A DNA stretch of 64,000 nucleotides from Myxococcota bacterium (GCA_040755835.1 JBFMAB010000122.1:43180-107179), one strand, 5' to 3'. Positions 8,550 to 50,787 are shown, numbered from the stretch's first letter. The notes: generated from the letters alone by a model not told the origin. Numbers and translations: made by a program.

Positions 8550-8834
8550 CGGCCCCTCCTGCCTGGTTTCAGTCCCGGTGCGCGACTGGGCCGCATGCCA
8601 CGCGCGGACCGCCGTGCTACGCCCTCGCCATGGTCGCGCCAGCTCAGGTCGCGCGCCGCCTCGCGGGCCTGCGCAGCTCGTGGGAGAACGCTGCTGTTGG
8701 CCATCGACTACGCGGTGCGCGACGAGCGCTCCACCTCTACTCGAAGGCCGAGCAACCTCGCCGGCAGCGTGAGGGACCGCACGGCGCTGGGCAAGACCGC
8801 CACCGCGCGCGGGCCAATCGCGTGGCGCGGTCCT

Positions 8835-19600: not shown

Positions 19601-20526
19601 AGGGCGCCGAGCAGCCGCGCAAGGCGGTGAAGTACCTGAAGCTGGCGGGCGACGCGCTCAGGGAGCGCCGCGCGTGGGCCGCCGCCGTCGACGCCTACCG
19701 GCAGTGCCTCGCCCTGGTGAGCCAGAACCTGGGCGGGCAGGGCGTGTCCAACGACGCCATCGCGCAGAACCTCCTCGACATCGTCGGCCTCGCCGCGTCG
19801 GCGCAGCTGCTGGTGGCCCCGGCCGACGTGCCCGCGCTGGTGGACCCGGTGCTGGCGCAGGTGCCCGAGTCGCGCGCTCCACAGGCCCGCGCCGAGGTGC
19901 TGCGGCAGCGCGCGCTGGCGCTGCAGCGCCTCACGCGGTTGTCCGAGGCCGAGGCCGACCTCCAGAAGGCGATGTCGCTGTCGCCCGCGCTGGCCGCCCC
20001 GCAGCTCGCCGGCATGCTGCGCGCCGACCTCGCCGGCGTCCTGGAGGCCAAAGGCGACCTCGCCGGCGCGTCGAAGCTGCTCATCGAGGGCCTCTCGTAC
20101 CTCTCCAACCGCAAGTTGGACGACAAGAACCTGCTCTGGCAGTACCTGAACCAGCTCGGCCGCATCCACGTGCGGTTGGGGAAGCTGCTCGAGGCCAGCG
20201 AGTTCTTCGACTCCGCGCGCGCGCAGGCGAAGGCCGCGCAGTCGCCGCTGGGCGAGTCGCGCGTGGTGTCCAACCTCGCGGTGCTGGCGGCCACCCGCAA
20301 GGACGCCGCCCAGGCGCTGGCGCTCTTCGACGAGTCGCGGCAGCTGGCCGAGGAGGCCGGCGATCGCCTCGGCGTGCTGCGCGCCCGGTACAACCGCGCC
20401 CGCCTGTTGCTGGCCAACCGCGCGGAGGAAGCGAAGAGCGAGCTGCGCGCGGTGGCCGAGGAGGCCCGCGCCATGGGCTGGCGCGAAGGCGAAGCGATGG
20501 CGGCGCAGGCGCTGGCCGGCCGGTAG
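16699..20526 (+). CDS. Ser/Thr protein kinase with N-terminal zinc ribbon, degenerate cyclase-like region, AAA/P-loop ATPase and TPR repeats
   Basis: The N-terminal zinc ribbon is CPSCSTPAPAEARFCAKCG.
The kinase domain has VHRDLKPGNVL, DFGIAK and GTPGYMAPE.
A degenerate cyclase-like region is present around RRTLSVAYGEVGAAKGG.
The P-loop is GGAGTGKSRLLE.
The C-terminus has TPR-like helices. Confidence 0.85.
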   Translation: MSACPSCSTPAPAEARFCAKCGAPLPQEEGATDPYIGRVMHSYRIRSVIGAGGMGKVYRAEQVKLKRPVCIKTLLPHLANDPTLVQRFELEGVATAAIRHPNIVQVLDFGQFDDRTLYIAMEYVEGKTLRNVLREEAPVPLSRAVNIAQQMLSGLAEAHANHIVHRDLKPGNVLMSKLRDGTDLVKLVDFGIAKVIGGGGDGPQLTRTGMMVGTPGYMAPEQMLGEGIEPTTDLYSVGVILWELLTGQKLFGRVDESELARRHLMLPAPSPSSVSRVPLPQALDEIVLRALEKKPERRYQSAMEFARALDTLEASGRARAASSGLTPMPAPALMPPPTQPSAPQAPNPATSFGQVMTGAGTMSSLTHLRGAVPEKLLTYAASLATMVGERRTLSVAYGEVGAAKGGDSGDAATMRQAMGAVLQELQDDGLKLGGVTMRLPGNALALVFGLGDDEDGGVGAALRFALESTQKVAEASTRLPRSLTFRVGLHSGVAEDAVFADRAFESQGVEELLSVARRLASVAQAGRPLATRAVQKRTAEKVTWAERPSLTGDDVGPLFEASELRERKVVLEPLVGRAQEVDYANRLLDQLVEGRPGGFLFVGGAGTGKSRLLEAAAQRAKERNVTVARARGGRFGAVTPLDVVRQFVHSLAAPHGGGDEGDVARTTLIGLQKLHVARSDIERLETLLGAGGGGAASGATADENQNLDRAVLLDLFRSVARRHRLLFLLDDLHSADPASLEVLSEVMARSQGLGVGIIGTVRAGASDALPQLKRFELGPLGRSDLERLVAHRLPGGAPSKPLLDLVVDRSDGNPLFAREIALTLVESGAAKLVGGEWQLQGGLEELPDSLASLMGVRIDRLSAQARLLLRYGAVAGRTFPIALVTAAVDAPLDVHAAVSECVTRGVLSPAPNQRDAYYFNQALLQDAMVGRISAVDKKAIHLRLAEAIERGISAGAENPLEAMARHFKGAEQPRKAVKYLKLAGDALRERRAWAAAVDAYRQCLALVSQNLGGQGVSNDAIAQNLLDIVGLAASAQLLVAPADVPALVDPVLAQVPESRAPQARAEVLRQRALALQRLTRLSEAEADLQKAMSLSPALAAPQLAGMLRADLAGVLEAKGDLAGASKLLIEGLSYLSNRKLDDKNLLWQYLNQLGRIHVRLGKLLEASEFFDSARAQAKAAQSPLGESRVVSNLAVLAATRKDAAQALALFDESRQLAEEAGDRLGVLRARYNRARLLLANRAEEAKSELRAVAEEARAMGWREGEAMAAQALAGR

Positions 20527-23587: not shown

Positions 23588-24685
23588 CTACGCGCGCTCC
23601 GTGGGGTCGACGCCCGTCAGCGCGTCGGCATCGAGGCCTGCGGCCAGCGCCCGGTGCTCGGCGCTGCCGAGGCGCGAGAGGCCGTCCTCCGGCCCGCGCA
23701 CGAAGCGGCGCACCAGCCCGTCGACGCGCGCCAGCGCCCGGTCCAGCTGCGCGTGGCTCAGCTCGCCCGTCTCCACGGCCTCCACCACCGCGTCGATGGC
23801 GCCGCGCTGCACGTCGGCGTGGTGACAGACGAGGAACTGGTCCGCCCCGGCCTCGAGGCCCGCCACCGCCGCGCGCGCCACCGAGAAGTGGTCCGCGATG
23901 GCCTTCATCTCGAGGTCGTCGCTCACCACCACGCCGGTGAAGCCCAGCTCGTCGCGCAACAGGCCCGTCAGCACCGGCCGGCTCATCGTCGCCGGCACCT
24001 GCGGGTCGAGCGCCTCGAACACCACGTGCGCCGTCATCAGCGACGCGAGGCCCGCCCGCGCGTACGCGGCGAAGGGCTTGAGCTCGACGCGACGCAGCCG
24101 GTCCAGCCCGTGCGGCAGCGACGGGAGGTCGAGGTGGCTGTCCTTCGAGGTGTCGCCGTGCCCGGGGAAGTGCTTGCCGCACGAGGCGACGCCGCCCGCC
24201 TCGAGGCCCCGCGCGAGCGCCACGCCGAGCCGCGCCACCTCGTCCGCGTCCCGCGACAGCGAGCGGTCGCCGATGACGGGGTTGGCGGGGTTGGTGTCCA
24301 CGTCCAGCACCGGCGCGTAGTCCTGGTCGAAGCCCAGCGCGCGCACCTCGAAGGCCAGCAGCCGCCCGACGCGCTCGGCGAGCGCCGCGTCGCCAGGGCG
24401 CCCCACCTCGCGCATCGGCGGCAGCGTGGTGAAGGGCGCCCCGCGCAGCCGCGCCACGCGCCCGCCTTCCTGGTCGATGGCGGCCAGCAGCGGCCGTCCG
24501 GCGTGCGCCTTCAGGGACTTCACCAGCGCCGCCACCTGCTCCGGCGACTCGACGTTGCGCTTGAAGAGGATGACGCCGCCCACGCCGTCGTCGATGAGCG
24601 CCTTCACGTCCCGGTCCGGGACGGTGCCGGGGAAGCCGACGACGAAGAGGCGCGCGACGCGGCGGTAAAGCTCGGAGGCGGGCAT
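23588..24685 (-). CDS. nagZ: beta-N-acetylhexosaminidase NagZ (glycoside hydrolase family 3 N-terminal domain)
   Basis: GH3 motifs AIDQEGGRV, KHFPGHGDTSKDSH, VVSDDLEMKA. Start MPASELYRRV. Confidence 0.85.
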   Translation of the reverse strand: MPASELYRRVARLFVVGFPGTVPDRDVKALIDDGVGGVILFKRNVESPEQVAALVKSLKAHAGRPLLAAIDQEGGRVARLRGAPFTTLPPMREVGRPGDAALAERVGRLLAFEVRALGFDQDYAPVLDVDTNPANPVIGDRSLSRDADEVARLGVALARGLEAGGVASCGKHFPGHGDTSKDSHLDLPSLPHGLDRLRRVELKPFAAYARAGLASLMTAHVVFEALDPQVPATMSRPVLTGLLRDELGFTGVVVSDDLEMKAIADHFSVARAAVAGLEAGADQFLVCHHADVQRGAIDAVVEAVETGELSHAQLDRALARVDGLVRRFVRGPEDGLSRLGSAEHRALAAGLDADALTGVDPTERA

Positions 24686-24746
24686 GGCGGTGTCGGGAAT
24701 ATCACCCTCCCGTCGCGCGCGCGGCGGGACTAAGTCACCCATTCCC

Positions 24747-27700
24747 GTGGATTCGCCCGACGCCCTCCCAGCCGGCACGCTCGTCGACGGCTTCAGGGTG
24801 AAGCGCCGCCTCGCCGAGGGCGCGATGGGCGAGGTGTACCTGGCGCAGGACGAGCGGCTCGGCCGCAAGGTGGCGCTGAAGTTCGTCAAGCCCACCGGCC
24901 TCGACGCGGCCGCCTGCGAGCGCTTCCTCGCCGAGGCGCGCACCACGGCGCGCTTCGCGCACCCGCACATCGTCACCGTGTACGCGGTGGGCGCGCACGC
25001 CGGGCGGCCGTACCTCGCGCTCGAGTACCTCGACGGAGAGACGCTGCGCGAGCGCCTCGGCCGCGGCCCCCTGCCGCTGCCCGAGGCCCTGCGCGTCGCG
25101 CGCGCCGTCGCCGAAGCGCTGGCCGAAGCGCACCGCCACGGCGTCATCCACGCGGACCTGAAGCCCGAGAACGTCGTGGTGCCCGCCGACGGCCGCCCGC
25201 GCGTCGTCGACTTCGGGCTGGCCCGCTTCGCCGGCGCCGACGGGGTCGCCGCGTCGGGCACGCCCGCCTACATGGCGCCCGAGCGCTGGCAGGGTGCCGC
25301 GCCCACGCCGGCCATCGACGTGTGGAGCCTCGGCGTCCTCGTCCACGAGCTCGTCGAAGGCGAGCGCCCGCTGTCCGACGGCGAGCTGGCCGCCTTCGCG
25401 TACGCGCCGCGGCCGGTGCCGCTGGGGCCTGCGGTGGCGCACCACCCGGTGCGCGAGCTCTTGCAGGCCTGCCTCGCCGTGGACCCGGCGGCGCGGCCGC
25501 CCTCGGAGGACGTCGCGCAGCGGCTCGCCGCGCTCCTTGACGGCGGCCGCCCGGGCGACGACGCGCGCTCGCCCTTCCGCGGCCTCGAGCCCTTCCGCGA
25601 GGCCGACGCCGTCGACTTCTCGGGCCGTGAAGCGGAAGTCGCCCAGGCGGCCGAAGGCCTCCGCGCGCACGGCGCCCTCGCCGTCCTCGGTCCGTCGGGC
25701 ATCGGCAAGAGCAGCTTCGTCTTCGCCGGCCTCGTGCCGCGCCTGCGCGAGGCGGGGACGTGGACCGTCGCGTCGCTGCGCCCCGGCGCGCGGCCGCTGT
25801 GGAGCCTCGCGCTGGCGCTCGTCACCTGCCGCGCCACGAAGAAGGACTCGCGCAGCTCTGCGGTGCCCGAGGTGGGCTCGCCCCTGGCCCGCGACGTCGA
25901 CGCGCTGGCGCTGGCGCTGGAGTCGGAGCCGGGCGCGCTGGCGCGGGCGCTGCGCGACATCGCGCAGGCCACCGGCGGCCGGGTGCTGCTCTTCGTCGAC
26001 CAGTTCGAGGAGCTCTTCACGCTCGCGCCGCCGGCGCACGCCGACGCCTTCGCGCTCGCGCTGGCGGCGGCGGCCGGCGCCGACGAGCCGTGGCGTCTCG
26101 CCTTCGCGCTGCGCGGCGACTTCCTGGGCGCCTTCGCCGGGCAGGCCGCGCTCAAGCCGATGCTGTCGAACGTGCTGGTGCTGGCGCCGCTCGGCCGCGC
26201 CGCCCTCGAGGCCGCGGTGCGGCGCCCGCTCGAGCGCGTGGGCTACCGGCCCGACGAGCCGTCGCTGCCGGCACGCCTCGCCGCCGACCTCGACGGGCAG
26301 CCCGCCGCGCTGCCGCTGTTGCAGTTCGCCGGGCAGGCCCTGTGGGAGCGCCGCGACAGCGCGCGGAAGCTCGTCCTGCGCGCCGAGTACGAGGCGATGG
26401 GCGGCGCCGTCGGCGCGCTCGCGGCGCAGGCCCGGCGCGCCATCGCCGACTTTTCGCCCGAGCAGCGCCGCGCGGTGCGCGCTCTCTTCTTGCGGCTCGT
26501 CAACGCGGACGGCACGCGGCGGCCGCGCCCTCGGGCCGAGCTGGTGTCGGGCCTCGGCGACGACGCGGGCGCCGTGCTGGACCGGCTGCTCGAGCGGCGG
26601 CTCCTCGTCGCGGGCCGGCCGGACGAGGGCGGCGAGGCGCTGGTGGAGCTCGCGCACGAGTCGCTGGTGACGACGTGGCCCGCGCTGGCGCGGTGGCTGT
26701 CCGAGACGCAGGAGGGGCGGCGGCTGGTGGCCGAGCTCGAGGCGGCCGCGGCGTTGTGGGACCAGCGCGGCCGTCGCGACGAGGAGACCTGGGCCGGCGA
26801 CGCGCTGGACGACGCGCAGCGGCGCCTGGAGGAGTGGGGCGTGTCGCTGCCCCAGCGCGCCGCGGACTTCGTGGAGGCGGGCCGCGCGCGGGCCCGGGCG
26901 CGCGCCCGCCGGCGGCGCGTCGGCCTGGTGGCGGGCGTCGCCACGCTGAGCCTCCTGGCAGTGGGCGCGACGGCGGCGGCCCTGGCCTTCCGCGAGAAGG
27001 AGCGCCAGGCCGTCGCCCAGCAGGAGCAGATTCGTCTCGCCGCGGCGGACATGGGGCGCTTCGAGCTCGTCCTCGAGCCCTTCGACTGGGACGCGGTGAG
27101 GCTCGAGGCGAAGCCGGTGCCGGCGAGCCGGCTGCCGGGCCTGGCCTGGGCGCTGTATGCCGCGTCGCGCGACGACGACGAGCAGGTGGGCGAGCGCCTC
27201 GCGCCGCCGGACGTGCGCCTCGAGAAGCAGGCGGTGGACGAGTTGGGCGCGGTGCACCTGCTGGTGGAGGCGCCCAGCCGCGTCACCTTTCTCTCCGTGT
27301 CGGGGCGCGGCGAGGCCGGTCGCGCCTGTCCACCGTCGCGGGTCCGCTTCCGGCGGCTCCCGGGCTTCGCCGAGCGCGAGGCGGGGGTGCGGCTCGTGGT
27401 GCCGGTGCCCACCTGCCAGGCGACGACGGCGGCGACCGTCGCGTTCGCGGAAGGGACGTTCCGGCGCGCGCTCGGGGAGGGCGTGGAGACGGTGCGCGTC
27501 GGCCCCTTCACCCTCGACGCCACCGAGGTGCCGACGGCGCTCTTCGACGTGTACCGCGGGCTCTCGGCGTGGACGGGCGACACGCGCAACCTGGTGCCAC
27601 CCGTGCTGGTGGGCGACTTCGCGCCGGGCAGCCTCCCCGTCTCGGGCGTCACCGCGGAGGTGGCGGACCGCTTCTGCGGGTTTCTTGGCAAGCGGCTCCC

Positions 27701-28103
27701 GCACGTCGACGAGTGGCAGCGCGCCGCGGCGACGCACCCGCACGCGCGCCACGTCCCGGGCGCGCCGGACTTCGTCGCCGAGGCGGCGCCCTGCGAGGCC
27801 AACCTCCAGGGCGGTGCCGACGGGTACCCGCACGCTGCCCCCGTCGGCCGCGTGGCCGGCGACGTGACGCCCGAAGGCGTGCGCGACCTGCTGGGCAACG
27901 TCAGCGAATGGACCGCGGACACCGCGACGACGGACCGCGAGAGCCAGGCGGGCTACTCGGGGCTGCGCATGACGCTGGGCGCGGACTGGGACACGCCCCG
28001 AGGCGCACCGCCGACGGACCTCACGTGGGTCAACAACAAGCCCAGCACGTACACCCACTTCGGCCAGGGCTTCCGGTGTGCGCTCGGGGCGGAAGGGCGC
28101 TGA
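24747..28103 (+). CDS. Ser/Thr protein kinase - P-loop NTPase - formylglycine-generating-enzyme (FGE/SUMF1-like) fusion
   Basis: Kinase VIHADLKPENVV, DFGLAR, GTPAYMAPE. P-loop LGPSGIGKSS. C-terminal FGE-like (GNVSEWTAD, RVTLGADWDT). The first possible start, 24684, would abut the nagZ start. I prefer GTG 24747. Confidence 0.8.
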   Translation: MDSPDALPAGTLVDGFRVKRRLAEGAMGEVYLAQDERLGRKVALKFVKPTGLDAAACERFLAEARTTARFAHPHIVTVYAVGAHAGRPYLALEYLDGETLRERLGRGPLPLPEALRVARAVAEALAEAHRHGVIHADLKPENVVVPADGRPRVVDFGLARFAGADGVAASGTPAYMAPERWQGAAPTPAIDVWSLGVLVHELVEGERPLSDGELAAFAYAPRPVPLGPAVAHHPVRELLQACLAVDPAARPPSEDVAQRLAALLDGGRPGDDARSPFRGLEPFREADAVDFSGREAEVAQAAEGLRAHGALAVLGPSGIGKSSFVFAGLVPRLREAGTWTVASLRPGARPLWSLALALVTCRATKKDSRSSAVPEVGSPLARDVDALALALESEPGALARALRDIAQATGGRVLLFVDQFEELFTLAPPAHADAFALALAAAAGADEPWRLAFALRGDFLGAFAGQAALKPMLSNVLVLAPLGRAALEAAVRRPLERVGYRPDEPSLPARLAADLDGQPAALPLLQFAGQALWERRDSARKLVLRAEYEAMGGAVGALAAQARRAIADFSPEQRRAVRALFLRLVNADGTRRPRPRAELVSGLGDDAGAVLDRLLERRLLVAGRPDEGGEALVELAHESLVTTWPALARWLSETQEGRRLVAELEAAAALWDQRGRRDEETWAGDALDDAQRRLEEWGVSLPQRAADFVEAGRARARARARRRRVGLVAGVATLSLLAVGATAAALAFREKERQAVAQQEQIRLAAADMGRFELVLEPFDWDAVRLEAKPVPASRLPGLAWALYAASRDDDEQVGERLAPPDVRLEKQAVDELGAVHLLVEAPSRVTFLSVSGRGEAGRACPPSRVRFRRLPGFAEREAGVRLVVPVPTCQATTAATVAFAEGTFRRALGEGVETVRVGPFTLDATEVPTALFDVYRGLSAWTGDTRNLVPPVLVGDFAPGSLPVSGVTAEVADRFCGFLGKRLPHVDEWQRAAATHPHARHVPGAPDFVAEAAPCEANLQGGADGYPHAAPVGRVAGDVTPEGVRDLLGNVSEWTADTATTDRESQAGYSGLRMTLGADWDTPRGAPPTDLTWVNNKPSTYTHFGQGFRCALGAEGR

Positions 28104-38664: not shown

Positions 38665-39615
38665 TCAAATCTTCACGTCCACCAGCGCGCCCTGCCGCAG
38701 CTCGAGCATGTACTGCTCGGTGTACTTCTCGAGCTGCGCGCGCAGCATCTTTTCGCGCAGCTTCTCCTTCACGTCCTCGAACGGCGGCGCCGCGAGCGCG
38801 CGTCGCTCCTCGACGAAGATGACGTGCCAACCGAACTTCGTGCGGACCGGGTCGGCGACCCCGCCGACGGGCGTGGTGAAGGCGACCTTCTCGAACTCCG
38901 CGACCATCACGCCGCGGCGGAAGAAGCCCAGGTCGCCGCCGTCCGCGGCCGACGGTCCTTCGGACTTCTTCTTCGCGAGCTCGGCGAAGTTGACGCCCGG
39001 CTTGCGCGCCTCGGCGGCGAGCGCCTCGGCCTTCAGGCGCGCGGCCTCGACCTGCTCGGGCGTCGCCTTCGGGCTCACCTGCACGAGGATGTGCCGCGCG
39101 TGCACCTCGGCGTCCTGCGCCTCGTCGTGCGCCCACTTCGCGTACTCGGCCTTCAGGTCCTCGTCGGCGATCTTCACCTTCGCGCGGACCTTCAAGTTCA
39201 CCAGCTTCATCCGCGCGAGGTGCTTGCGCATGAAGGTCCGGTACGTGGACATCGTGTACCCCTCCTGCGCCAACAGCTGCTCGAACTGCTCGCTGGTGAT
39301 GTTGTTCTGCTTCTTCACGTCCTCCACCGAGAGGTCGATCTCCGACTCGGCCACCTCGATGTTCAGCTCGCGGATTTGCGCCTCCATCAGCTTCTCGCCG
39401 ATGAGCATGTCGAGGGAGCGCTTCATCACCTGCTCGCGCAGCTCGCTGCGCTTGTCCGCAGGCGCGCCCTTGAGGCCCGCCAGCTCGGGCGCCGCGCGCG
39501 CCTCGACCTCGCTCAGCGTGACGATGTCGTCGTTCACCACCGCCGCCACGCGGTCCACCAGCTCGGCGTGCGCCGCGCCGGCGACGAGGCTGATCAACAG
39601 GACGAAACGCTTCAT
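38665..39615 (-). CDS. surA: SurA-like periplasmic chaperone / parvulin-type PPIase
   Basis: Signal peptide. SurA N-terminal domain followed by a PpiC rotamase domain (HILV...FGWHVI). Confidence 0.8.
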   Translation of the reverse strand: MKRFVLLISLVAGAAHAELVDRVAAVVNDDIVTLSEVEARAAPELAGLKGAPADKRSELREQVMKRSLDMLIGEKLMEAQIRELNIEVAESEIDLSVEDVKKQNNITSEQFEQLLAQEGYTMSTYRTFMRKHLARMKLVNLKVRAKVKIADEDLKAEYAKWAHDEAQDAEVHARHILVQVSPKATPEQVEAARLKAEALAAEARKPGVNFAELAKKKSEGPSAADGGDLGFFRRGVMVAEFEKVAFTTPVGGVADPVRTKFGWHVIFVEERRALAAPPFEDVKEKLREKMLRAQLEKYTEQYMLELRQGALVDVKI

Positions 39616-39702
39616 GGTGTCGCGCCCTTAGCACGCGGAGAGCGGGCCGCGACAGCGGCTGTTAACGGCGCGGGCGGGTGCGGCATCCTCTGGGCTGAAG
39701 CG

Positions 39703-40296
39703 ATGGCGCTCCCGGCGAGCATCGAGCGGCGGCCCCAGGGCGGCGAGCGCCCGGACGGGGCTGCGCGCTGGCGGCCGTGGGTCGCCGCCGCGCGCGCAGG
39801 CGATCGGCAGGCCTTCGCGCAGCTGCACGCGCACTTCGGGAGGCTGGTGCACGCCGTCGTCATCACCCGCGTCGGCGCTTCCGACGCGAAGGACCTCGTG
39901 CAGGACGTGTTCCTCACCATGTGGCAGAAGCTGGAAACGCTGGAAGACGACCAGGCCTTCCCGGCGTGGCTGACGCAGCTCGCGCGCCACCGGGCCGCGA
40001 AGGCGCTGCGCGACCGCAAGCCGACGGAGACGCTGGACGACGAGCCGGGCCTCGCCGCGCCCGACCGCTCCGGGGCGCCCGACGCGCAGAAGGTCCTGAA
40101 GGCGCTCATGGCGTTGCCCGAGGCGTACGCGGAGCCGCTCGCGATGCGCCTCGTCGAAGGCATGAGCGGCCCGGAGATCGCCGAGCGCACCGGCCTCACC
40201 CCGGGCAGCGTCCGCGTCAACCTGCACCGCGGCATGAAGCTGCTCCGCGAGAGGCTGGGTCTCGCGCCCGCCGAGGAGGGGCCCGGCGATGAGTGA
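39703..40296 (+). CDS. ECF (sigma-70 family) RNA polymerase sigma factor
   Basis: Region 2 (DLVQDVFLTMW) and region 4 (GMSGPEIAERTGLTPGSVRVNLHRG). Confidence 0.85.
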   Translation: MALPASIERRPQGGERPDGAARWRPWVAAARAGDRQAFAQLHAHFGRLVHAVVITRVGASDAKDLVQDVFLTMWQKLETLEDDQAFPAWLTQLARHRAAKALRDRKPTETLDDEPGLAAPDRSGAPDAQKVLKALMALPEAYAEPLAMRLVEGMSGPEIAERTGLTPGSVRVNLHRGMKLLRERLGLAPAEEGPGDE

Positions 40297-41290
40297 CTAC
40301 CTCTTCGACAAGACGGGCCGCGACGAGGACGTGGAGCGCCTCGAGGACGCGCTCGGCCGGTTCGCCTACGACGGCGAGGCGCCCGAGCTGCCGGACGCCA
40401 GGCGCCGCGAGGAGCCCGTCGCGCCGCTGCCGGCGCGCGCGCGCCGCGACCGCGACGAGCTGCCGGTGCGAGCGCCGTTGCTTCCCGGCTTCCGCTGGCC
40501 GCTCGCCGCCGCGCTCGCCTTCGGCCTCGTCGCCGCGCTCTTGTCGTACTCGGCCATCAAGAAGCGCGAGGCCGACGTGCGCAGGGGCTGGAACCTCGTG
40601 CCGGTGGTGGTGGCCGCCGTCGACGTGTCCGAGGGCACGGTGGTGACGATGGAGATGCTGAGCCAGCGCAGCGTGCCGGAGCAGTTCGTCACCTCGTCCG
40701 TCGTGAAGCCGGACTCGGCGTCGTACATCGTGAACCAGAAGGTGCTGGTGCCGCTGGCCGCGGGCGACCCGCTGTTGTGGAGCCAGTTCGAGACGACGCG
40801 GGCCTCCGAGCGCCTGTCGACGAAGGTGCAGAAGCGCGCGCGCGCCATCTCCATCGAGGTGAAGGGCGTCACCTCGGTCGGCGGGTGGATTCGCCCCAAC
40901 GACCACGTCGACATCATCGGCAGCTTCAAGGACCCGCAGTCCGGCGAGCAGGTCGCGGTGACGCTGATGCAGAACGTGGTGGTGCTCTCCACGGGGAAAA
41001 TCACCGGCACCACCAACGTGAACCTCGTCCCCGAGGGCCAGCGCGACTACGGGGACGTCTCGCTGCTGGTGCTGCCCGAGGAGGCCGAGATGCTGGTGCT
41101 CGCGCAGGAGCTGGGCGCGCTCACCTTCACCCTGCGCAACGAGGAGGACCTCGACGTCCTCGCCGAGCGCGGGCGGGCCACCATCAACACGCTCCTCTCC
41201 GGCGAGCGCACCAGGGTGCTCCAGCAGAAGCGCTTCAACACCATCCAGGTGATTCGCGGCGCGGCCCGCCCAACGCCCGAGAAGCCGTAG
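40289..41290 (+). CDS. anti-sigma factor N-domain fused via one TM helix to a periplasmic CpaB-like (SAF + RcpC) domain
   Basis: The start overlaps the sigma stop (gATGAgtga) with GAGGAGG RBS. Acidic cytoplasmic N-terminus. TM helix LAAALAFGLVAALL. CpaB-like periplasmic domain. Confidence 0.75.
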   Translation: MSDYLFDKTGRDEDVERLEDALGRFAYDGEAPELPDARRREEPVAPLPARARRDRDELPVRAPLLPGFRWPLAAALAFGLVAALLSYSAIKKREADVRRGWNLVPVVVAAVDVSEGTVVTMEMLSQRSVPEQFVTSSVVKPDSASYIVNQKVLVPLAAGDPLLWSQFETTRASERLSTKVQKRARAISIEVKGVTSVGGWIRPNDHVDIIGSFKDPQSGEQVAVTLMQNVVVLSTGKITGTTNVNLVPEGQRDYGDVSLLVLPEEAEMLVLAQELGALTFTLRNEEDLDVLAERGRATINTLLSGERTRVLQQKRFNTIQVIRGAARPTPEKP

Positions 41291-42153
41291 CGTCTTCCGC
41301 GCCGGTTAACGCTTTCGGCGGCCCCGGGCTCCTCCTGGGCATGCTGAAAGGAAGAGCCCCCCTCCTCGTCGCCGCCGTCCTCGCCGCCGCCGCCTTCGCC
41401 GTCGCCTACAGCGCCATCAAGAAGCGCGAGGCCGACGTGCGGAAGGGCTGGAACCTGGTGCCGGTGGTGGTCGCCGCGGTGGACGTGTCCGAGGGCACCG
41501 TCGTGACGATGGAGATGATCAGCCAGCGCTCCATCCCCGAGCAGTTCGTCACCTCGTCCGTCGTGAAGCCGGACTCCGCGTCGTACATCGTGAACCAGAA
41601 GGTGCTGGTGCCGCTGCAGGCGGGCGACCCGCTCCTGTGGAGCCAGTTCGAGACGACGAAGGCGTCGGAGCGGCTGTCCACCAAGGTGATGAAGAAGACG
41701 CGCGCCTTCACGCTCGAGGCGAAGCCGGTGACGGCGGTGGGCGGCTGGGTGCGACCGAACGACCACATCGACATCCTCGGCACCTTCAAGGACCCGAACA
41801 CCGGCGAGCAGGTCGCACTGACGCTGCTGCAGAACATCATCGTGCTGGCGACGGGGAAGATCACCGGCACCACCAACGTGAACCTGCTGCCGGAAGGGCA
41901 GCGGGACTACAACAACGTGTCGGTGCTGGTGCTGCCCGAGGAGGCCGAGGTGCTGATGCTCGCGCGGGAGCTGGGCGAGCTGAGCTTCTCCTTGCGCAAC
42001 GAAGAGGACCTCGACGTGCTCGATGAGCGCCGGCAGACGACGGTCAGCACGCTGTTCGACGGGAAGCGGCTGCAACTCCTCATGGAGAAGCGGAAGAACA
42101 ACATCATCGACGTCATCCGCGGCAACGTGAAGCAGTCGGAGAGCGCGCCGTGA
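40530..42153 (+). repeat. tandem gene duplication (two ~750-bp CpaB-domain copies)
   Basis: Long nucleotide identity runs, for example cgcgaggccgacgtgcg.aggggctggaacct.gtgccggtggtggt.gccgc.gt.gacgtgtccgagggcac.gt.gtgacgatggagatg. Confidence 0.7.
41341..42153 (+). CDS. CpaB-like (SAF + RcpC) protein, tandem paralog of the upstream gene
   Basis: Signal-anchor. About 80% identical to residues 90-333 of the upstream protein. Confidence 0.8.
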   Translation: MLKGRAPLLVAAVLAAAAFAVAYSAIKKREADVRKGWNLVPVVVAAVDVSEGTVVTMEMISQRSIPEQFVTSSVVKPDSASYIVNQKVLVPLQAGDPLLWSQFETTKASERLSTKVMKKTRAFTLEAKPVTAVGGWVRPNDHIDILGTFKDPNTGEQVALTLLQNIIVLATGKITGTTNVNLLPEGQRDYNNVSVLVLPEEAEVLMLARELGELSFSLRNEEDLDVLDERRQTTVSTLFDGKRLQLLMEKRKNNIIDVIRGNVKQSESAP

Positions 42154-42293
42154 TGGCGCTGCTCGCGGCGGCGTGCGCCGGCGGCGCGGTGTTCTCGGCG
42201 TGGCTCGCGTTCCTGGCGCGGGAGACGTCCGCGCCCCCGCCGGAGGTGAAGGCCAGGCTCCGGCGTCGCTTCCGTCCGCGCCTGGTTCGCTAG
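42153..42293 (+). CDS. small hydrophobic protein (46 aa)
   Basis: The start overlaps the upstream stop (TGATG). Uniformly high GC3. MALLAAACAGGAVFSAWLAFLARETSAPPPEVKARLRRRFRPRLVR. It is below the ORF-track size cutoff. Confidence 0.35.
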   Translation: MALLAAACAGGAVFSAWLAFLARETSAPPPEVKARLRRRFRPRLVR

Positions 42294-42429
42294 CAGGTGG
42301 GCGGGTTCATGATCGCCATGTACCTGCTGCCCGTCTTCGCCATCGCCGAGCGCGCCGGTGGCGGTGTTCGCGAGTGAACGGCGGGTGGCCATCGCCGACA
42401 TCGAGCGCGTGGCCGAGGTGGCTCGAGCG

Positions 42430-43407
42430 CTACGGCTCGTGTGACTGGCTCGACGTCGGGCGGCCGGTCACCTGCTGCAGGACGCCGGCGTTCACCTTCA
42501 CCTCGGCCTTCGCGCGCAACGCCTGCACGTAGGCTTTCTGCGCCTCGGAGCGAAGCTGGCCGACGAGCTTCCCCTCGATGGCGGCGCGGACCTCGGCGAG
42601 TTCCTTCTTGCGCGCGGGCTTCTTCTCCACCACGCGGAAGAGGTGGAAGCCGTATTCGGTGGACACGACGTCGCTCGTCCCGCCGGGCGGCAGCTTGAAG
42701 ACGACCTCGTCGAAGGCCGCCGGCATGGTGCCGCGCGCGAAGAAGCCGAGGTCGCCGCCCACCTTCGCGTCGGGTGACAGCGAGTAGCGCCGCGCGAGGT
42801 CGCCGAACTTCTTGCCCTGCCACAGCTGCTGCTGGATGCGCTTCGCCTCGTCGAGGCCCCTCACGACGATCTGCAGCGCGTGCACCTGCTCGGGCTCCTG
42901 GAAGTCGTCGGCGTGCTCGTCGAAGTACCGGCGGATCTGCTCCTCGGTGACGGCGACGCGGGCGAAGACCTCCTGGTTCAGAAGCTTCTCGATGGTGAGC
43001 TGCTCGCGGGTGGTGCGGGTCAGCTGCGCGCGCGTGGTGCCGCTCTGCTCGAGCGCCTCGTCGAAGGTGCCGGCGGGGTACTCGCTGGCCAGCGCGAGCA
43101 CGCGGCGGTCGACCTCGTCGGGCGTGACGGTGACGCTCGCGGCGCGCGCGGCCTGCAGCAGCAAGGCGTGCTCGATGAGCGTTTCGAGCAGCGTCTGCTT
43201 GTACCGCTCGATCTGCTCGGGGCTTCGGGGGGCGACGCCTTCCATCGCCTGCGCTTCGCGGGTGAGCAGCCGCTCGAAGTCCTTCCGGCCGATGACCTCC
43301 CCGTTGACGGTGGCGACGACGTCCGGGTTTTCCTGCGGCTGATGTGGCTGCGGGCAGGCAGCGAGCGCGACGGCGGCGGCGAGCAGAGAGGTCAGGCGGA
43401 GAATCAC
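42430..43407 (-). CDS. parvulin-type (PpiC/PrsA/PpiD-like) PPIase lipoprotein
   Basis: GTG start giving MILRLTSLLAAAVALAAC (lipobox). PpiC domain (HALQIVV...YGFHLFRV). Confidence 0.75.
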   Translation of the reverse strand: MILRLTSLLAAAVALAACPQPHQPQENPDVVATVNGEVIGRKDFERLLTREAQAMEGVAPRSPEQIERYKQTLLETLIEHALLLQAARAASVTVTPDEVDRRVLALASEYPAGTFDEALEQSGTTRAQLTRTTREQLTIEKLLNQEVFARVAVTEEQIRRYFDEHADDFQEPEQVHALQIVVRGLDEAKRIQQQLWQGKKFGDLARRYSLSPDAKVGGDLGFFARGTMPAAFDEVVFKLPPGGTSDVVSTEYGFHLFRVVEKKPARKKELAEVRAAIEGKLVGQLRSEAQKAYVQALRAKAEVKVNAGVLQQVTGRPTSSQSHEP

Positions 43408-43623
43408 GGTGTGCCATCGCCTAGCACGACTGCGCCCCGGGGGCAGGCGCGCGCTCGCGTTGACGGTGCTCCCCGGGGGCGCCGACGAACGACGCCGGCG
43501 AGGTGGCACGCGGCATGCGCCGCCCGGCGCCGCCAGCAGCGAGGACCCCCGCGCGCCGACGCCGGCGCGCGCACCTCCGCCTGAAATCCTGCTGCCCGGG
43601 GACTTCGTTTCGACGCTGCCCGC

Positions 43624-45582
<1,959 letters not shown>

Positions 45583-45631
45583 GTGCGGTCTCCTCGACGA
45601 GGCGACACGGGCTCGCGCGCGGCGTTGCACG

Positions 45632-46477
45632 TCACGGCGCGTCCGTCCCCAGCAGCCGCGCCATCGACAGCTCGAGCCCCGAGCGCATCGCGCGCAAGAG
45701 GCTGTCCAGCTGCGCGTCGTCCAGCGAGAGCCGCGCGGCGAGGCCGGCGCGCGTCGCGACGAGCAGCGCTTCGTGCACCTTCGAGAGCCAGCGCGACACG
45801 GTGGACTTGTTGACGCCGTAGATGTCGCCGATGCGCTCGAGCGGCAGCCCGTCGAGCGCCTGCAGCCGCAGCACGTTGCGCTCCCGCGGCGTCAGCGTGC
45901 GCAGCGCCGCCTGGAAGGCCTCGCTGAAGACGGCCCGGTGCTGCGTCCGCACCGCGGTCAGCTCCGGGTCCGGCGCGGCCAGGGGGAGCGCCTCGAGCGC
46001 CTCGTCCTCGGCGGCGACGAGGCGTGCGCCCGGGCGGCGGGCGTTGAGCGCGGTGCGCACCGCCGCGGCGCGCAGCCAGCTGATGAGCGGTCCGTCGCCG
46101 TCGTACGTCGCGATGCGCGGCGCCTCGCCCACCAGCAGCTTCTCGCGCAGCTGCTGCAGCACCTCGTCGATGAACTCCGGCGCGGCATCGACGCGGGCGA
46201 TGGCGGCGGAGAGCCGCGAGAGGTAGCGCGCGTCGAGCTCCCGCAGCGCCACCGCGTCTGCGCGCGCGCACGCCCAGGCGAGGAAGAGGTCCTCGGCCGG
46301 CAGCGCGGTCAGCTCGCCCTTGGCTCGCGGCGCCAGCCAGGTGACGAAGGCGACGTCGTCCATCACGACGGACGGGAAGGCGTCACGTGCACGGCCGAGC
46401 AGCGCGCGCAACGCGTCCTCCAGCCCGTCGAGCGAGCGGCCGGGGGGCGCGTGCGGGACGAAGGCCTCGGCGAGCAC
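45632..46477 (-). CDS. ECF-type sigma factor with N-terminal and C-terminal extensions
   Basis: Region 2 (DLFLAWACARADAVALRELDARY, GPLISWLRAAAVRTALN) and region 4 (LQALDGLPLERIGDIYGVNKSTVSRWL). Confidence 0.75.
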   Translation of the reverse strand: MLAEAFVPHAPPGRSLDGLEDALRALLGRARDAFPSVVMDDVAFVTWLAPRAKGELTALPAEDLFLAWACARADAVALRELDARYLSRLSAAIARVDAAPEFIDEVLQQLREKLLVGEAPRIATYDGDGPLISWLRAAAVRTALNARRPGARLVAAEDEALEALPLAAPDPELTAVRTQHRAVFSEAFQAALRTLTPRERNVLRLQALDGLPLERIGDIYGVNKSTVSRWLSKVHEALLVATRAGLAARLSLDDAQLDSLLRAMRSGLELSMARLLGTDAP

Positions 46478-46936: not shown

Positions 46937-47325
46937 GCAGGCTCCTGGTGACGGCGGGTTTCCGAAGGGACACAGGCGCGCGGGAAACGTTGCGCGCCGC
47001 CGGCACGCCCGCCGTTTCAAGACGTTGTCTTCGGCCTGGCAGGGCGGTGTCCGAGCGACGGTGAGGAAGCGTGGGAGACGGCCGTGACGGGCCTGCTCCG
47101 GGTCGTGACGTACCCGGAGGACGACGGGGGCGCGTCGTGGCTGTGGGGCTCGAGCGACCGCGACACCGGCCTGTGGAAGGTCGTCCCGACGTCCGTCGGC
47201 CTCGTGCGCCCCGGGCGCGACGGCGCCGCGTGAGTCCGGGTAGGTCGAAGGACTACGGCGCATCGTCGGCCTCCGCGACGCTATCGTCATCGTCCGCTTT
47301 CCGGGGGGGCGAGGGAGACGAATCG

Positions 47326-49524
47326 GTGTCGCGAGACTTCGAGACCATCACCGCAGCCAACCCCATCGGACCCGCGCGCGGCGACGCGTGCCTCATCGTG
47401 GTGAGCACGCCGACGCGCAGCGAGCTGGGGCGGGTGCTGGTGCTGTCGAAGTCGCTGACGCTCGGGCGCGGCCGCGAGGCGGACCTCTCGCTGTCGGACG
47501 CGTCGATGTCGCGCCGCCACGCGCGTCTCACCCTGACGGAGGCCGGGGTGCAGCTCGAGGACCTGGGCTCCCGCAACGGTTGCTTCGTCAACGGGGTGCG
47601 GGTGAGCCAGGTCGACTTGCGCCACGGAGACCAGCTTCGGCTCGGCGCCACCACCTTGCACTTCCACGCGCAGGATGGGGCCGGCCCCGGGCCGGGCGCG
47701 GAGGCGCTCACCCAGTCGGGCGTCGCGCAGTGGGACTACGACGTCGCGCTCGGCGCGGTGCGCTGGTCCCGGCAGGCGGAGACAGCCCTCGAGTTGCCGA
47801 AGGGCGCGCTGGGCGACGAGGCGCGGCCGCTGCGTGAGCTGCTCCACGCGGCGCAGTGGGCGGAGGTGGCGACGGCGCTCGAGGCGCCGGGGCAGGCGCC
47901 GGTGGTGGAGGTCGACGCGCGCCTCGCGCTCGCGCCCGGGACGTGGTGGGTGCGGCTGCGCGGGCAGGTGCTGCGCGGCGAGGACGGCCGGCCCCGCCGC
48001 ATCAGCGGCACCGCGGTGAACGTGACGGCGGCGAAGCACCGCGAGCACGCGGTGGCCCGCGCCGGCCAGTTTTTCGAGAATCTGCCCGAACCGGTCATCG
48101 TCGCCGACGCCGACGGGCGCGTGGTGGAGCTCAACGGCGCGGCGCTCGATGCCTTCGCGGTCCAGCGCGGCGAGGCGCGGGGGCGCGACGTCTTCGCGGT
48201 GGCGGGCGCTTCGCCGGGCGAGGGCGTGCGACAGGAGGCCCTCGAGGCCCTGGCGAAGTCCGGCGCATGGACCGCCTCGCTCCAGTTGCGCGTCGCCGGC
48301 CAGGCGCGCCCACACCGGGTGACGGGTTTCCGGCTGCAGGACGGGGCCGAGGCGCTGGGCCTGGCGTTCCTCTTCCGAGACGTGTCCGAGCAGCACCGGT
48401 GGGAGGCGCAGCTCGACCAGATGGAGCGGATGGCGTCTCTGCATACGCTGAGCGCCGGCATCGCCCACGAGCTGAACAACCCCTTGTCCTACGTGCTGGC
48501 GAACGCGCGCGTGGCCCTCGAGCGGCTCCAGGGACATCCCGACGAGGACCTGCGCGAGGCCCTGGCCGAGTTGGTGGAGGGGAGCGAGCGCATCGCCGGC
48601 ATCGTGGGGGACCTCCGGGTCTTCGCGCGGGGCGATGCGGAGTTCGGAACACATCCGACGGACCTCGGCGCCGTCGTCGAGGCCGCGAGGAAGTTGACGG
48701 CGAAGTGGGTGGACGCGCGGGCGTCCCTCACCGTCGAGCTGACCGCGTCGCCGCTGGTGGAGGCGCACGAGCGGCGGCTCGAGCAGGTGCTGGTGAACCT
48801 GCTCATCAACGCGGCGCAGGCCATTCCCGAGCGCGCCGAGGGGAAGGGCCGTATTCTGGTGCGGGCCCAACCGAGTGACGGCGGCGTGGCGCTCGAGGTG
48901 GTCGACGACGGCGAAGGCATGACGCCCGACGTGCAGAGGCGCATCTTCGAGCCGTTCTTCACCACGCGGCCGGTGGGCGTCGGCACGGGGCTGGGGCTGG
49001 CGGTGTGTCACGGGCTGGTGCGCTCGATGGGCGGAACGCTGACGGTGCGGAGCGCGCCGGGCGAGGGAAGCACCTTCCGCCTGTGGCTCCGGGTCGCCCA
49101 GCCGCGGCGCGTCGAGGCGCCCACTCCGGCGCCCTGCTCGGGAGGCGAGCGGAAGCTGAAGGTGCTGCTCGTCGACGACGAGCCGCTGGTGCTCAAGGCG
49201 CTTGCGCGGATTCTCAAGGCGCATGAGGTGACGACGGTGTCCTCGGTGCGCGCCGCCCTCGAGCACTTCTCGGCCGGGGCGCGCTTCGACGTGCTGTTGT
49301 GCGACCTGATGATGCCGGAGCAGACGGGCATCGACCTCTACGAGCGCCTGAAGGTGGAGGTGCCGGAGCAGGCGGCGCGCATGGTGTTCCTGACGGGCGG
49401 CGCCTTCACCGAGCGCGCGGACCGCTTTCTCAAGTCCGTGCGCAACCGGCAGCTCATCAAACCCGTCGACGCGACCGTGCTCCGGCAGACGGTGTTCGAG
49501 GTAGGCGGCGCCCTGCAGGCGTAG
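47326..49524 (+). CDS. FHA - PAS - histidine kinase - receiver hybrid sensor kinase
   Basis: GAGGGAG RBS with GTG start.
FHA domain (LTLGRGREADLSLSDASMSRRHARL...GSRNGCFVNG).
PAS region.
H-box SAGIAHELNNPL.
N/G boxes.
C-terminal receiver domain (LLVDDE...CDLMMPE). Confidence 0.8.
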   Translation: MSRDFETITAANPIGPARGDACLIVVSTPTRSELGRVLVLSKSLTLGRGREADLSLSDASMSRRHARLTLTEAGVQLEDLGSRNGCFVNGVRVSQVDLRHGDQLRLGATTLHFHAQDGAGPGPGAEALTQSGVAQWDYDVALGAVRWSRQAETALELPKGALGDEARPLRELLHAAQWAEVATALEAPGQAPVVEVDARLALAPGTWWVRLRGQVLRGEDGRPRRISGTAVNVTAAKHREHAVARAGQFFENLPEPVIVADADGRVVELNGAALDAFAVQRGEARGRDVFAVAGASPGEGVRQEALEALAKSGAWTASLQLRVAGQARPHRVTGFRLQDGAEALGLAFLFRDVSEQHRWEAQLDQMERMASLHTLSAGIAHELNNPLSYVLANARVALERLQGHPDEDLREALAELVEGSERIAGIVGDLRVFARGDAEFGTHPTDLGAVVEAARKLTAKWVDARASLTVELTASPLVEAHERRLEQVLVNLLINAAQAIPERAEGKGRILVRAQPSDGGVALEVVDDGEGMTPDVQRRIFEPFFTTRPVGVGTGLGLAVCHGLVRSMGGTLTVRSAPGEGSTFRLWLRVAQPRRVEAPTPAPCSGGERKLKVLLVDDEPLVLKALARILKAHEVTTVSSVRAALEHFSAGARFDVLLCDLMMPEQTGIDLYERLKVEVPEQAARMVFLTGGAFTERADRFLKSVRNRQLIKPVDATVLRQTVFEVGGALQA

Positions 49525-49535
49525 CGGGCCGCGCG

Positions 49536-50519
49536 TCAACGCGACGGCGGCGGCGGCGGCGCGGCGATGAAGCCGGGCTGCGGCGAGGATGGCGCGGCGG
49601 CGGGCGCCTTCGGGTCCACGACGATGGCCGCGAGCGCCGACTCGTTGACCTCGAAGTGGGCCTGCTTCTTCAGGCGCTCGAGCAGTGCGCGGAAGCGGTC
49701 CTGCCTGGTCTCGTTGAGCAGCACCTGCTGAATCGACGGGCGCGCCTGCTCCAGCGACAGGTTGAGGGCGATCTGCCGGCCCTGCAGCTTGACGATGTGA
49801 AAGCCCTTGTCCGTCTCGACGAGGTCGGGCGCGACGTCGCCGACCTTCTGCAGCGCGGCGGCGGCCTTCACCAGCGCGTCGCCGTACTGCTTCGCGAGCT
49901 CCTCGTCGGCGAGGAAGCGGAGGTCGCCGTCGAGCTCCCTCGAGCGCGGATCCTCCGAGCGCTCGCGGGCCAGCTTCGCGAAGGCGGCGTAGTCGAGCGG
50001 CGCCAGCGCCTTCACCTGCGCGAGGACCTCCTCGGCCTGCGCGCGGTGCTCCTTCGTGAAGAAGATGTGCGAGAGCCGGGTCATCGCGGGCTTCACGTAG
50101 TCGGACTGGTGCGCCTGGTAGTACTCGGCGACCTGCGCGTCGGTGACCTGGCTCGCGTTGCCTTCGATTTCCTTCTTGAGCAGCAGCTGCACCATGACGC
50201 GCTTGGCGGTCTCGACGACCTCCGGGTCGTTCGCGAGGCCCTGGCGGACGGCTTCCTGCGAGAGGAGCTCGAAGCGGACGAGGCCGTCGACGTATTCGCG
50301 GCGCTGCTCGACGGTCTGGTAGCGCGCGCGGGCGTACGGGTTCATCTCGGCGAAGCGCTGGTTGAGCTCCCGGTCGGTGATGGTGTCGCCGCCGAAGCGG
50401 GCGACCCAGGTGCCGCCGGTCGCGCCGGGCACCGGGCGGCGGCGGAAGTCGACCTTCGCGGTGCCGGTCTCGTTGCAGGCGGTGAGGAGGAGGGCGGTGA
50501 CGAGGGCGAGGTGACGCAT
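49536..50519 (-). CDS. parvulin-type PPIase lipoprotein (PpiD/PrsA-like)
   Basis: Lipobox LLLTAC. Rotamase region (HIFF...KGFHIVKL). Confidence 0.75.
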   Translation of the reverse strand: MRHLALVTALLLTACNETGTAKVDFRRRPVPGATGGTWVARFGGDTITDRELNQRFAEMNPYARARYQTVEQRREYVDGLVRFELLSQEAVRQGLANDPEVVETAKRVMVQLLLKKEIEGNASQVTDAQVAEYYQAHQSDYVKPAMTRLSHIFFTKEHRAQAEEVLAQVKALAPLDYAAFAKLARERSEDPRSRELDGDLRFLADEELAKQYGDALVKAAAALQKVGDVAPDLVETDKGFHIVKLQGRQIALNLSLEQARPSIQQVLLNETRQDRFRALLERLKKQAHFEVNESALAAIVVDPKAPAAAPSSPQPGFIAAPPPPPSR

Positions 50520-50715
50520 GGCGCGTGGACTAGCAGAGGCCGGCGGTGCGCGTCCCGAGCGGCGTGGCGTGGACGGGGCGGGCTCGAGGGGAGTGGCGGC
50601 GGACGGTGCGGTCGCGCTGCCCGACCCATGAGCTCCTCGGCGCGAGATGTCTGGTGACTCCACTGGCTCGCGCGTCGAGCCTGTACTCATTGATGACAGC
50701 CAGGCTGGGTCGCCG

Positions 50716-50787
50716 CTTTTCCGAATCGTCAGGTACTTGACGATTTGGAGGCCCGGAATTCGTCAAGTACGCACCCATCTGGAAAAG
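50716..50787. promoter_or_regulatory. nested inverted repeats upstream of the marR-like gene
   Basis: Outer CTTTTCC...GGAAAAG. Inner perfect 11-bp GTACTTGACGA (50733-50743) / TCGTCAAGTAC (50760-50770). It sits in a locally AT-richer stretch about 200 bp upstream of 50951. Confidence 0.45.

Follow-up and report, generated by a model that had tools for sequence, protein, structure and literature searches.

The stretch analysed here, a window of 64,000 nt from the genome of a Myxococcota bacterium (GCA_040755835.1 JBFMAB010000122.1:43180-107179; G+C content about 72%), contains at positions 39703-42293 of the plus strand a four-gene signalling module of the extracytoplasmic function (ECF) type, which has so far been seen only in uncultured Myxococcaceae and Archangiaceae genomes; all coordinates without a locus or contig name are positions in this window. 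The module consists of the genes for an ECF sigma factor, for a 333-aa protein in which an N-terminal extension is fused to a CpaB body, and for a second, stand-alone CpaB protein (CpaB2), followed by a small open reading frame (ORF). Sequence comparisons make it very probable that the first two genes encode an ECF sigma factor and its cognate membrane anti-sigma factor with a CpaB sensor. A first-pass annotation of the same DNA had described a sigma factor, an anti-sigma factor with a CpaB-type sensor and a tandem CpaB in this place, and every one of these features was found at 39703-42293.

The product of the first gene (39703-40296, 197 aa) is an ECF (group IV) sigma-70 factor. Pfam searches clearly indicate the sigma-2 and sigma-4 domains only (Sigma70_r2 at 3e-13, Sigma70_r4_2 at 1e-14), with no match for region 3 or region 1, and the ECF superfamily model TIGR02937 is passed with 73.8 bits (cutoff 42.9), while the specific NCBIfam subfamily models all scored below their cutoffs. 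The best PDB relatives of the protein are RpoE, SigW and CnrH. The stop codon of the sigma gene (TGA, 40294-40296) lies beyond the ATG of the next gene (40289), which results in an 8-nt overlap (gATGAGTGA, the ATGAGTGA arrangement), in agreement with the coupling of the sigma and anti-sigma genes described earlier.

The second gene (40289-41290) encodes the 333-aa fusion, composed of an N-terminal module, an Arg/Pro-rich linker, a transmembrane (TM) helix and the SAF and RcpC domains. Both domains are above the Pfam cutoffs (SAF, aa 105-168; RcpC, aa 175-283), the periplasmic CpaB/KilB-like part occupies aa 99-326, and aa 72-326 span positions 4-258 of the 262 positions of the TIGR03177 model (pilus_cpaB) with 178 bits (cutoff 71). 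The hydrophobic helix, a stretch at about aa 68-98 (nt 40490-40582), directly follows an Arg-rich segment. By these matches, the 333-aa protein comprises an entire CpaB with its TM anchor, preceded by about 70 additional residues. The first-pass annotation, which had predicted an N-terminal domain, one TM helix and a complete CpaB and had named CpaB and SAF models as a check, is borne out on both points, since SAF, RcpC and TIGR03177 all pass and the last is covered at nearly full length. Related loci were collected in a scan of species-representative genomes; the 80 loci kept form two main classes, A and B. Orthologs of the fusion are present in 33 of the 80 (class A), each from a Myxococcaceae or Archangiaceae metagenome-assembled genome (MAG); among the kept loci, MAGs alone carried the module, and M. 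xanthus is not among the organisms showing it.

Public annotations label these proteins as 'pilus assembly protein CpaB' and begin them at another codon. The NCBI record P0004 is identical to the 333-aa protein over 81% of its length; the NCBI Prokaryotic Genome Annotation Pipeline (PGAP) uses an internal start there and in the relatives' records P0007 and P0009, giving proteins of 269-270 aa. The 270-aa call drops the region 40289-40477 with the conserved N-terminal module and so hides the sigma/anti-sigma relationship in public records. The agreement of the NCBI calls for this protein and two close relatives could be taken to mean that the N-terminal extension is a gene-calling artefact and that the true protein is the 270-aa form, with no fusion. 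That would be most surprising, given that the first 35 codons are kept at the protein level, with seven invariant residues, among orthologs that are 60-86% identical overall; that the extension is homologous to more than 1,000 other N-termini; and that the ATG overlaps the sigma stop codon (ATGAGTGA), an 8-nt overlap found also in two family members elsewhere.

The N-terminal module (aa 1-35, MSDYLFDKTGRDEDVERLEDALGRFAYDGEAPELP; 40289-40393) is predicted from ortholog conservation and from a motif profile to be the sigma-binding part of the fusion. Its motif, DYLWDKSG..VE.LE..L, covers about 35 residues and is conserved in every fusion ortholog, with D3, L5, G10, D12, E19, L22 and P32 invariant. 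A profile built from the fusion orthologs, used in a search of 1.84 billion cluster representatives (clusters at 50% identity), matched at least 1,130 representatives at E<=1e-3. The matches listed sit at or very near the N-terminus, except in two very long repetitive proteins (P0122 and P0131), where part of the motif was matched many times and which were discarded as spurious. Proteins bearing the motif are about 100-360 aa long in total; most of them have a hydrophobic helix at about aa 40-65, some 10-30 aa after the motif, and the part that follows the module is variable, with FecR in 23 and SAF in 5 of the top 148 matches and no Pfam match in most.

The genomic context was checked for five N-motif proteins from unrelated metagenomes. 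A complete ECF sigma gene lies directly upstream in three of them (P0142, P0128 and P0214), with an overlap of 4-8 nt; in the other two (P0140 and P0226) the upstream product is incomplete, being a sigma fragment or truncated by the contig end. Two sigma factors encoded upstream of other N-motif proteins, with FecR-type partners, are 53-57% identical to the window sigma and almost identical in region 4, while the ECF sigma of the kil cluster discussed below shares only 27% identity with it. In all 33 class-A loci the sigma gene is directly upstream of the fusion gene, and among the related loci the N-motif occurs only on the CpaB copy behind the sigma gene, never on KilB or CpaB2. The recurrence of the N-module with the same sigma subfamily suggests that the two travel as a cassette in which the extracytoplasmic domain is exchangeable, and such a cassette would be built like a membrane anti-sigma factor whose sigma-binding segment is very short. 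These comparisons support the N-module as the predicted sigma-binding module of a large unannotated family that partners this sigma subfamily. The proposal of a CpaB-type anti-sigma factor thereby gains support from the N-motif family and its upstream sigma genes, and the accompanying remark that none had been described agrees with the searchable literature, in which no CpaB-, RcpC- or Flp-type anti-sigma factor was found.

Two variations on the module were observed. In an Archangium-like subclade (loci L012, L029, L035, L036, L039, L041 and L046; proteins P0012, P0017, P0024 and P0026), the N-motif is tandem-duplicated in frame, in proteins of 362-383 aa (for example, L039 9899-10110); one copy might contact sigma-2 and the other sigma-4, or the pair might bind two sigma factors. 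In the N-motif loci of lower GC content L082-L084, a DUF4252 gene follows the gene of the anti-sigma-like protein, as in P. gingivalis PG_0214-PG_0216.

The full-length, high-scoring match to the CpaB equivalog, which includes the TM anchor, the lack of a recognised anti-sigma domain and the public name CpaB would also suit a protein whose main role is structural, as a CpaB variant in a machine of the Tad/Kil type. The tail would then serve localisation or contact a cytoplasmic Kil component, and the upstream sigma factor would merely transcribe alternative CpaB subunits while being controlled by something else. This is improbable, as the same N-module heads hundreds of non-CpaB single-pass proteins, including those with FecR domains, the gene overlaps that of a complete sigma of the same subfamily in three of the five contexts, and the tail is confined to the copy behind the sigma gene.

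A predicted ECF-type promoter of the sigma/anti-sigma operon is located at 39661-39689 (+) and comprises GTTAAC (39661-39666), a 17-nt spacer and CATCCT (39684-39689). A second copy of the motif lies 5' of cpaB2 at 41305-41333 (+), with GTTAAC at 41305-41310, a 17-nt spacer and GCTCCT, ahead of the ATG at 41341; GTTAAC occurs in the 64-kb window only at these two places, 39661 and 41305. Of 34 class-A loci, 33 have it upstream of the sigma gene, where 0.36 would be expected, and the class-A sigma promoters consist of GTTAAC, a spacer of 16-18 nt and CATCCT or TCTCCT, about 40 nt 5' of the ATG. The 1.29 Mb of sequence from the 80 related loci contain 54 GTTAAC sites, of which 32 precede sigma genes, 18 precede cpaB2-type genes and 4 lie elsewhere, three of these four being in class-B loci near the ECF gene of the kil cluster; not one site in the 1.29 Mb precedes kilB. 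The cpaB2-type genes carry the site even where they lie several kb (1-7 kb) from the fusion gene or on another contig.

Other members of the sigma subfamily have GTTAAC-N16-17-CGTCT, which looks like a classical ECF promoter, upstream of the sigma gene at a distance of 160 nt to about 1 kb; in single cases a site was found ahead of the gene preceding sigma and before the gene after the anti-sigma gene. The distance from the -10-like element to the ATG is about 7-14 nt (39684-39703; 41328-41341), the ATG of the sigma gene standing 14 nt past CATCCT, and this implies that the sigma and cpaB2 mRNAs would be leaderless or near-leaderless. Leaders of 30-40 nt occur before cpaB2 in some relatives. 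As the best reading of these sites, the sigma factor is predicted to autoregulate and to drive cpaB2 together with the overlapping small ORF.

The cpaB2 gene (41341-42153) starts 50 nt after the fusion stop codon and encodes a stand-alone CpaB paralog of 270 aa, a predicted regulon member, with a TM helix and with SAF and RcpC domains above the Pfam cutoffs; TIGR03177 gave 176 bits (cutoff 71). The gene had been taken for an 80% identical second copy of the fusion, the product of a tandem duplication. The figure is right for DNA (79.8% identity) and too high for protein (75% amino acid identity over 248 aa), and the duplication itself is not upheld. A cpaB2-type gene in other genomes is often directly 3' of the fusion gene, and is otherwise on another contig or at a distance of 1-7 kb; in the CpaB tree, the majority of CpaB2 copies are set apart as a long-branch clade. 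Judged from this distribution, CpaB2 is a distinct conserved paralog with its own copy of the sigma-type promoter and no recent tandem duplicate.

The fourth gene (42153-42293) encodes a 46-aa protein with a single TM helix, or 47 aa if the GTG at 42150 is the start, and overlaps the cpaB2 stop codon (TGATG within GTGATG), by which its translation would be coupled to that of cpaB2; neither Pfam nor NCBIfam gave a match for the 46-aa protein. An equivalent ORF, with the same position and frame offset, an N-terminal TM helix and a Pro/Arg-rich tail, stands behind cpaB2 in almost every one of 17 inspected relatives, and a PRTLH C-terminus is common to one subclade of the homologs. This conservation makes the ORF very probably a real gene, and its product is probably a real membrane protein. 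The first of the two tiny hydrophobic ORFs reported earlier is thus retained; the second, of 27 aa (42297-42380, +), has no counterpart in the relatives inspected, is probably spurious and was dropped as a gene.

In the loci of class B, CpaB stands alone and shares 74-81% identity with the periplasmic part of the fusion. The Kil system of M. xanthus is a Tad-like contact-killing machine; the CpaB homolog of its kil cluster II (MXAN_4648-4661), KilB, is essential for contact-dependent prey killing (PMC8460266; PMC12075869), and the gene content of class B matches this cluster as given in PMC8460266: the gene order in locus L007 is ECF sigma, zf-HC2 protein, 89-aa ORF, CpaB, two T2SSF platform genes and an FHA protein, and the other class-B loci were assigned by an FHA gene 2-3 kb downstream. 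The first gene of the L007 cluster (7076-9547, kil cluster II type) encodes an ECF sigma belonging to the cluster itself (PRK12513-type, 258 bits); the zf-HC2 anti-sigma-like protein there has 613 aa and no recognised periplasmic domain; hence, at least two ECF systems are tied to Kil-type genes in these genomes. Many genomes hold both classes on different contigs, and on the 9.4-Mb contig JASGKS010000001.1 they are more than 2 Mb apart.

Pfam scans covering about 40 ORFs across the window detected no T2SSE ATPase, T2SSF platform or secretin among them, as had been noted before, and no Tad core gene was present in the scanned ORFs over about 39 kb upstream or 22 kb downstream of the module; the ORFs at 28-31 kb of the window gave no Pfam matches. 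In the relatives, Tad core genes are absent within 10 kb on either side of the class-A loci. Neither CpaB protein of the window is encoded in a tad, cpa or kil operon beside a secretin, an ATPase and a platform, and the context of a KilB ortholog (a pilin gene and two T2SSF genes flanking, FHA near) was not found at the window locus, so that the window CpaB proteins are to be regarded as KilB paralogs and not as the ortholog. The view of the window genome extends over 64 kb, and a neighbouring kinase bears three domains of the CpaC N-terminal type, which leaves some room for an ordinary pilus locus with a complete tad or kil cluster just outside the window and the sigma factor as its local regulator. 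The chance of this appears very small in light of the Tad-free flanks and of the relatives with the same synteny, in which kil cluster II is on a different contig (or, on JASGKS010000001.1, more than 2 Mb away); the distance between the two classes in relatives argues against a tad cluster just outside the window.

The relationship between the fusion and KilB is close. A neighbour-joining tree of 99 CpaB domains has the fusion and KilB copies intermixed and grouped by lineage. Of the 26 genomes with both the fusion and a gene of the KilB type, 18 have their own KilB as the best KilB match of the fusion, and the CpaB domain of the fusion is 70-93% identical to the KilB of the same genome, with 87-93% reached in several lineages, while fusion orthologs from different genomes share about 76% on average. 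This pattern indicates concerted evolution of the fusion gene and kilB, presumably by gene conversion or repeated replacement. The C-terminal segment of about 47 aa is on average 88% identical (80-96%) between the fusion and its own KilB, even where the rest of the domain is at about 70%, and CpaB2 is only 47-48% identical to either of them in this segment. The TM and juxtamembrane part of KilB is 63% identical to that of CpaB2, and either is 48-54% identical to that of the fusion (fusion versus KilB, 54%); in the SAF and RcpC domains, CpaB2 and the sensor are about 73-81% identical. With the approximate mapping onto RcpC, these values say that the sensor would have kept the partner-determining end of KilB and that CpaB2 has not. 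The suggestion of the first-pass annotation that the CpaB fold had been repurposed for signalling therefore stands as far as an anti-sigma sensor is concerned; a detachment from pili does not, since the sensor is a close paralog of KilB.

The whole account favoured here, an ECF module with a KilB-like sensor that forms a switch linked to Kil, is reasonably probable. The N-module would hold the sigma factor at the membrane, and a complete CpaB/RcpC provides the TM helix and the periplasmic body in place of the sensor usual in the family (FecR or an unknown domain). Once free, the sigma factor would read GTTAAC-N16-18-C(A/T)TCCT and transcribe its own operon, cpaB2 and the gene of the 46-aa membrane protein. 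The KilB-type tail of the sensor and its co-evolution with the own kilB are the grounds for proposing that the KilB-like body assembles together with KilB in the Kil envelope complex or competes with it there for shared partners. The Kil assembly state would then set the release of the sigma factor, through regulated proteolysis, the usual release route for single-pass anti-sigma factors, or through sequestration; CpaB2 and the small protein would be the response and might remodel the machine or reset the switch. This monitoring of Kil is a tentative step, which we would not put at even chances. Somewhat more doubtful still is its most specific version, an assembly-state reporter by subunit mimicry, in which the KilB-like body enters the Kil ring or competes for it, gene conversion with kilB keeps the fit and assembly of the machine on prey contact leads to transcription of cpaB2, as an alternative ring subunit, and of the small membrane partner; if true, such a checkpoint would be a mechanism undescribed for ECF systems or type IV filament machines.

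The main rival to this Kil-linked switch is a loop closed in itself: the sensor would respond to CpaB2 (with the small protein), the product of its own regulon, or hetero-oligomerise with it, and together they would form an independent periplasmic ring or an envelope-stress sensor. The cpaB2 gene carries the sigma-type promoter wherever it is located, CpaB2 resembles the sensor in the SAF and RcpC domains to the extent given above, and the module is far from the kil genes, all of which would be expected of such a loop. Even so, a loop with no Kil link is unlikely, because the tail, the likeliest partner or oligomerisation region, matches KilB (88%) and not CpaB2 (48%), and the sensor tracks the KilB of its own genome in 18 of 26 genomes.

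Several observations weigh against the Kil-linked switch and the anti-sigma pair at its centre. The fusion contains no zf-HC2, RskA, FecR_N or other known anti-sigma domain (Pfam at E<=0.1, NCBIfam at E<=0.01), its conserved cytoplasmic segment of only about 35 aa falls short of the 80-90 aa or so of a class I anti-sigma domain, and a search of PDB with the N-motif profile returned only designed coiled coils at E>0.4, with no structural homolog or solved anti-sigma factor. We know of no member of the N-motif family that was shown to bind a sigma factor. The AlphaFold 2 model of the fusion (60-sequence alignment) has a mean pLDDT (predicted local distance difference test) of 52.8 and a CpaB part of low confidence; it is confident only for the N-motif (pLDDT 78-88, helix aa 13-23) and the TM helix. 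The promoter is deduced from conservation only, and with leaders of about 7-14 nt, translation would have to be near-leaderless. Concerted evolution is not universal, since the sensors of the Archangium-like subclade share only 71-74% identity with KilB and show no preference for the KilB of their own genome. The Kil loci are known from related genomes, the window genome being viewed over 64 kb only.

The structure of RcpC bears on the tail in particular. RcpC from P. aeruginosa (PDB 9gzr) is an inner-membrane-anchored dodecamer, the 'alignment' ring of the Tad pilus, in which a C-terminal linker is needed for the dodecamer and a terminal hairpin contacts the secretin N-domain (PMC12307814). 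The fusion is similar in sequence to 9gzr (E = 6e-7), but, as a further point on the adverse side, the myxobacterial CpaB proteins are about 35 aa shorter than RcpC in the alignment and may lack the secretin-binding hairpin, which makes the partner of the conserved tail uncertain.

To our knowledge, ECF sigma/anti-sigma pairs are among the commonest bacterial signalling devices, and the signals of most of their sensor domains are unknown. The identity of the sensor here points to a likely target, the Kil machine assembled at prey contacts, and how Kil assembly is sensed and coupled downstream is an acknowledged open question (PMC8460266). A testable prediction follows, in which the sensor is compatible with Kil, and the promoter motif and the output (CpaB2 and the 46-aa membrane protein) are both specified. 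The analysis yielded two by-products of use in themselves. One is a large family, so far without annotation, of N-terminal anti-sigma-like modules that are very short and make up at least 1,130 clusters at 50% identity; the other is the finding that the start codon is systematically mis-annotated in public records, so that the module goes unseen there.

The surroundings of the module include further regulators and Tad-derived domains. A sigma gene of the Sig-70_gmx1 type (TIGR03001; 45632-46477, minus strand) directly precedes that of a 668-aa protein with a weak zf-HC2 match, a Ser/Thr kinase domain and three T2SS-T3SS_pil_N domains (pair 43624-46477), and thus a second regulator with a Tad-derived periplasmic domain adjoins the CpaB module. 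Domains of the T2SS-T3SS_pil_N type stand at the N-terminal end of the CpaC/RcpA secretin, where the RcpC hairpin binds (PMC12307814). The gmx1 sigma/kinase pair was considered as a part of the system and rejected, as it is absent in the closest relative (L002) and the kinase at the corresponding position next to the fusion in L010 is devoid of pil_N domains. Three genes of SurA-like peptidyl-prolyl isomerases/chaperones flank the module (38665-39615, 42430-43509 and 49536-50762, all on the minus strand) and are kept in one subclade of class A, which shares the window synteny surA-like / sigma-fusion-cpaB2 / surA-like, surA-like. Chaperones of the SurA type escort outer-membrane proteins, and by analogy a link of these genes to secretin biogenesis is conceivable.

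A hybrid protein with FHA, two PAS, histidine kinase and receiver domains in this order is encoded at 47065-49524 (+) and keeps its synteny with the module in L002; FHA proteins are notably abundant in the Kil clusters (PMC8460266). At a greater distance, a 755-aa ORF at 9896-12163 (+) resembles the eukaryote-type Major Vault Protein (MVP_shoulder at 3.9e-30 and a Vault_3 repeat) and is followed by large ORFs with no Pfam match (12164-15085), and two very large Ser/Thr kinase fusions are encoded at 24684-28103 (+) and 16699-20526 (+), one with kinase, nSTAND1 NTPase and FGE-sulfatase domains (1139 aa), the other with zinc-ribbon, kinase, AAA_16 and TPR domains (1275 aa).

The comparison with known systems begins with RcpC/CpaB, with which both window proteins share an N-terminal TM anchor followed by SAF and RcpC, as well as the passing of TIGR03177; the 333-aa copy differs in its 70-aa cytoplasmic extension and in its place behind an ECF sigma gene, outside any tad operon. 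KilB and the fusion are carried by the same lineages and have nearly the same C-terminal tail (mean 88% identity), whereas the fusion lies outside the kil cluster and has a putative anti-sigma N-module and a diverged TM region (54%), and KilB has no GTTAAC promoter. The single-pass ECF anti-sigma factors, such as RseA and those of the FecR type, show the same gene order, sigma and then partner, with a stop/start overlap, the same topology (cytoplasmic N-terminus, one TM helix, periplasmic sensor) and an autoregulated ECF promoter, which is predicted here; relatives of the N-motif carry FecR, while the fusion itself contains no zf-HC2, RskA or FecR_N domain. Unlike in the known ECF anti-sigma factors, the sensor is a subunit of a pilus machine, an arrangement not found described in the searchable literature. 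The class II anti-sigma factor CnrY (CnrH/CnrY, PDB 4cxf) binds its sigma factor through a very short segment, similar in size to the N-module.

The P. gingivalis operon consists of PG_0214 (ECF sigma), PG_0215 (putative anti-sigma) and PG_0216 (DUF4252) (PMC10101095). The second-best NCBIfam match of the window sigma is the PG0214-type model, with 77 bits, below the cutoff of 130, and some N-motif genes likewise precede DUF4252 genes, but the P. gingivalis operon is devoid of CpaB. In the FlgM/FliA checkpoint, anti-sigma activity is tied to flagellar assembly, FlgM being a soluble protein that is exported through the machine. The logic that we infer for the present module would be alike, with the difference that an anti-sigma factor mimicking a subunit would be incorporated into the machine, or would compete for it, in place of an exported protein.

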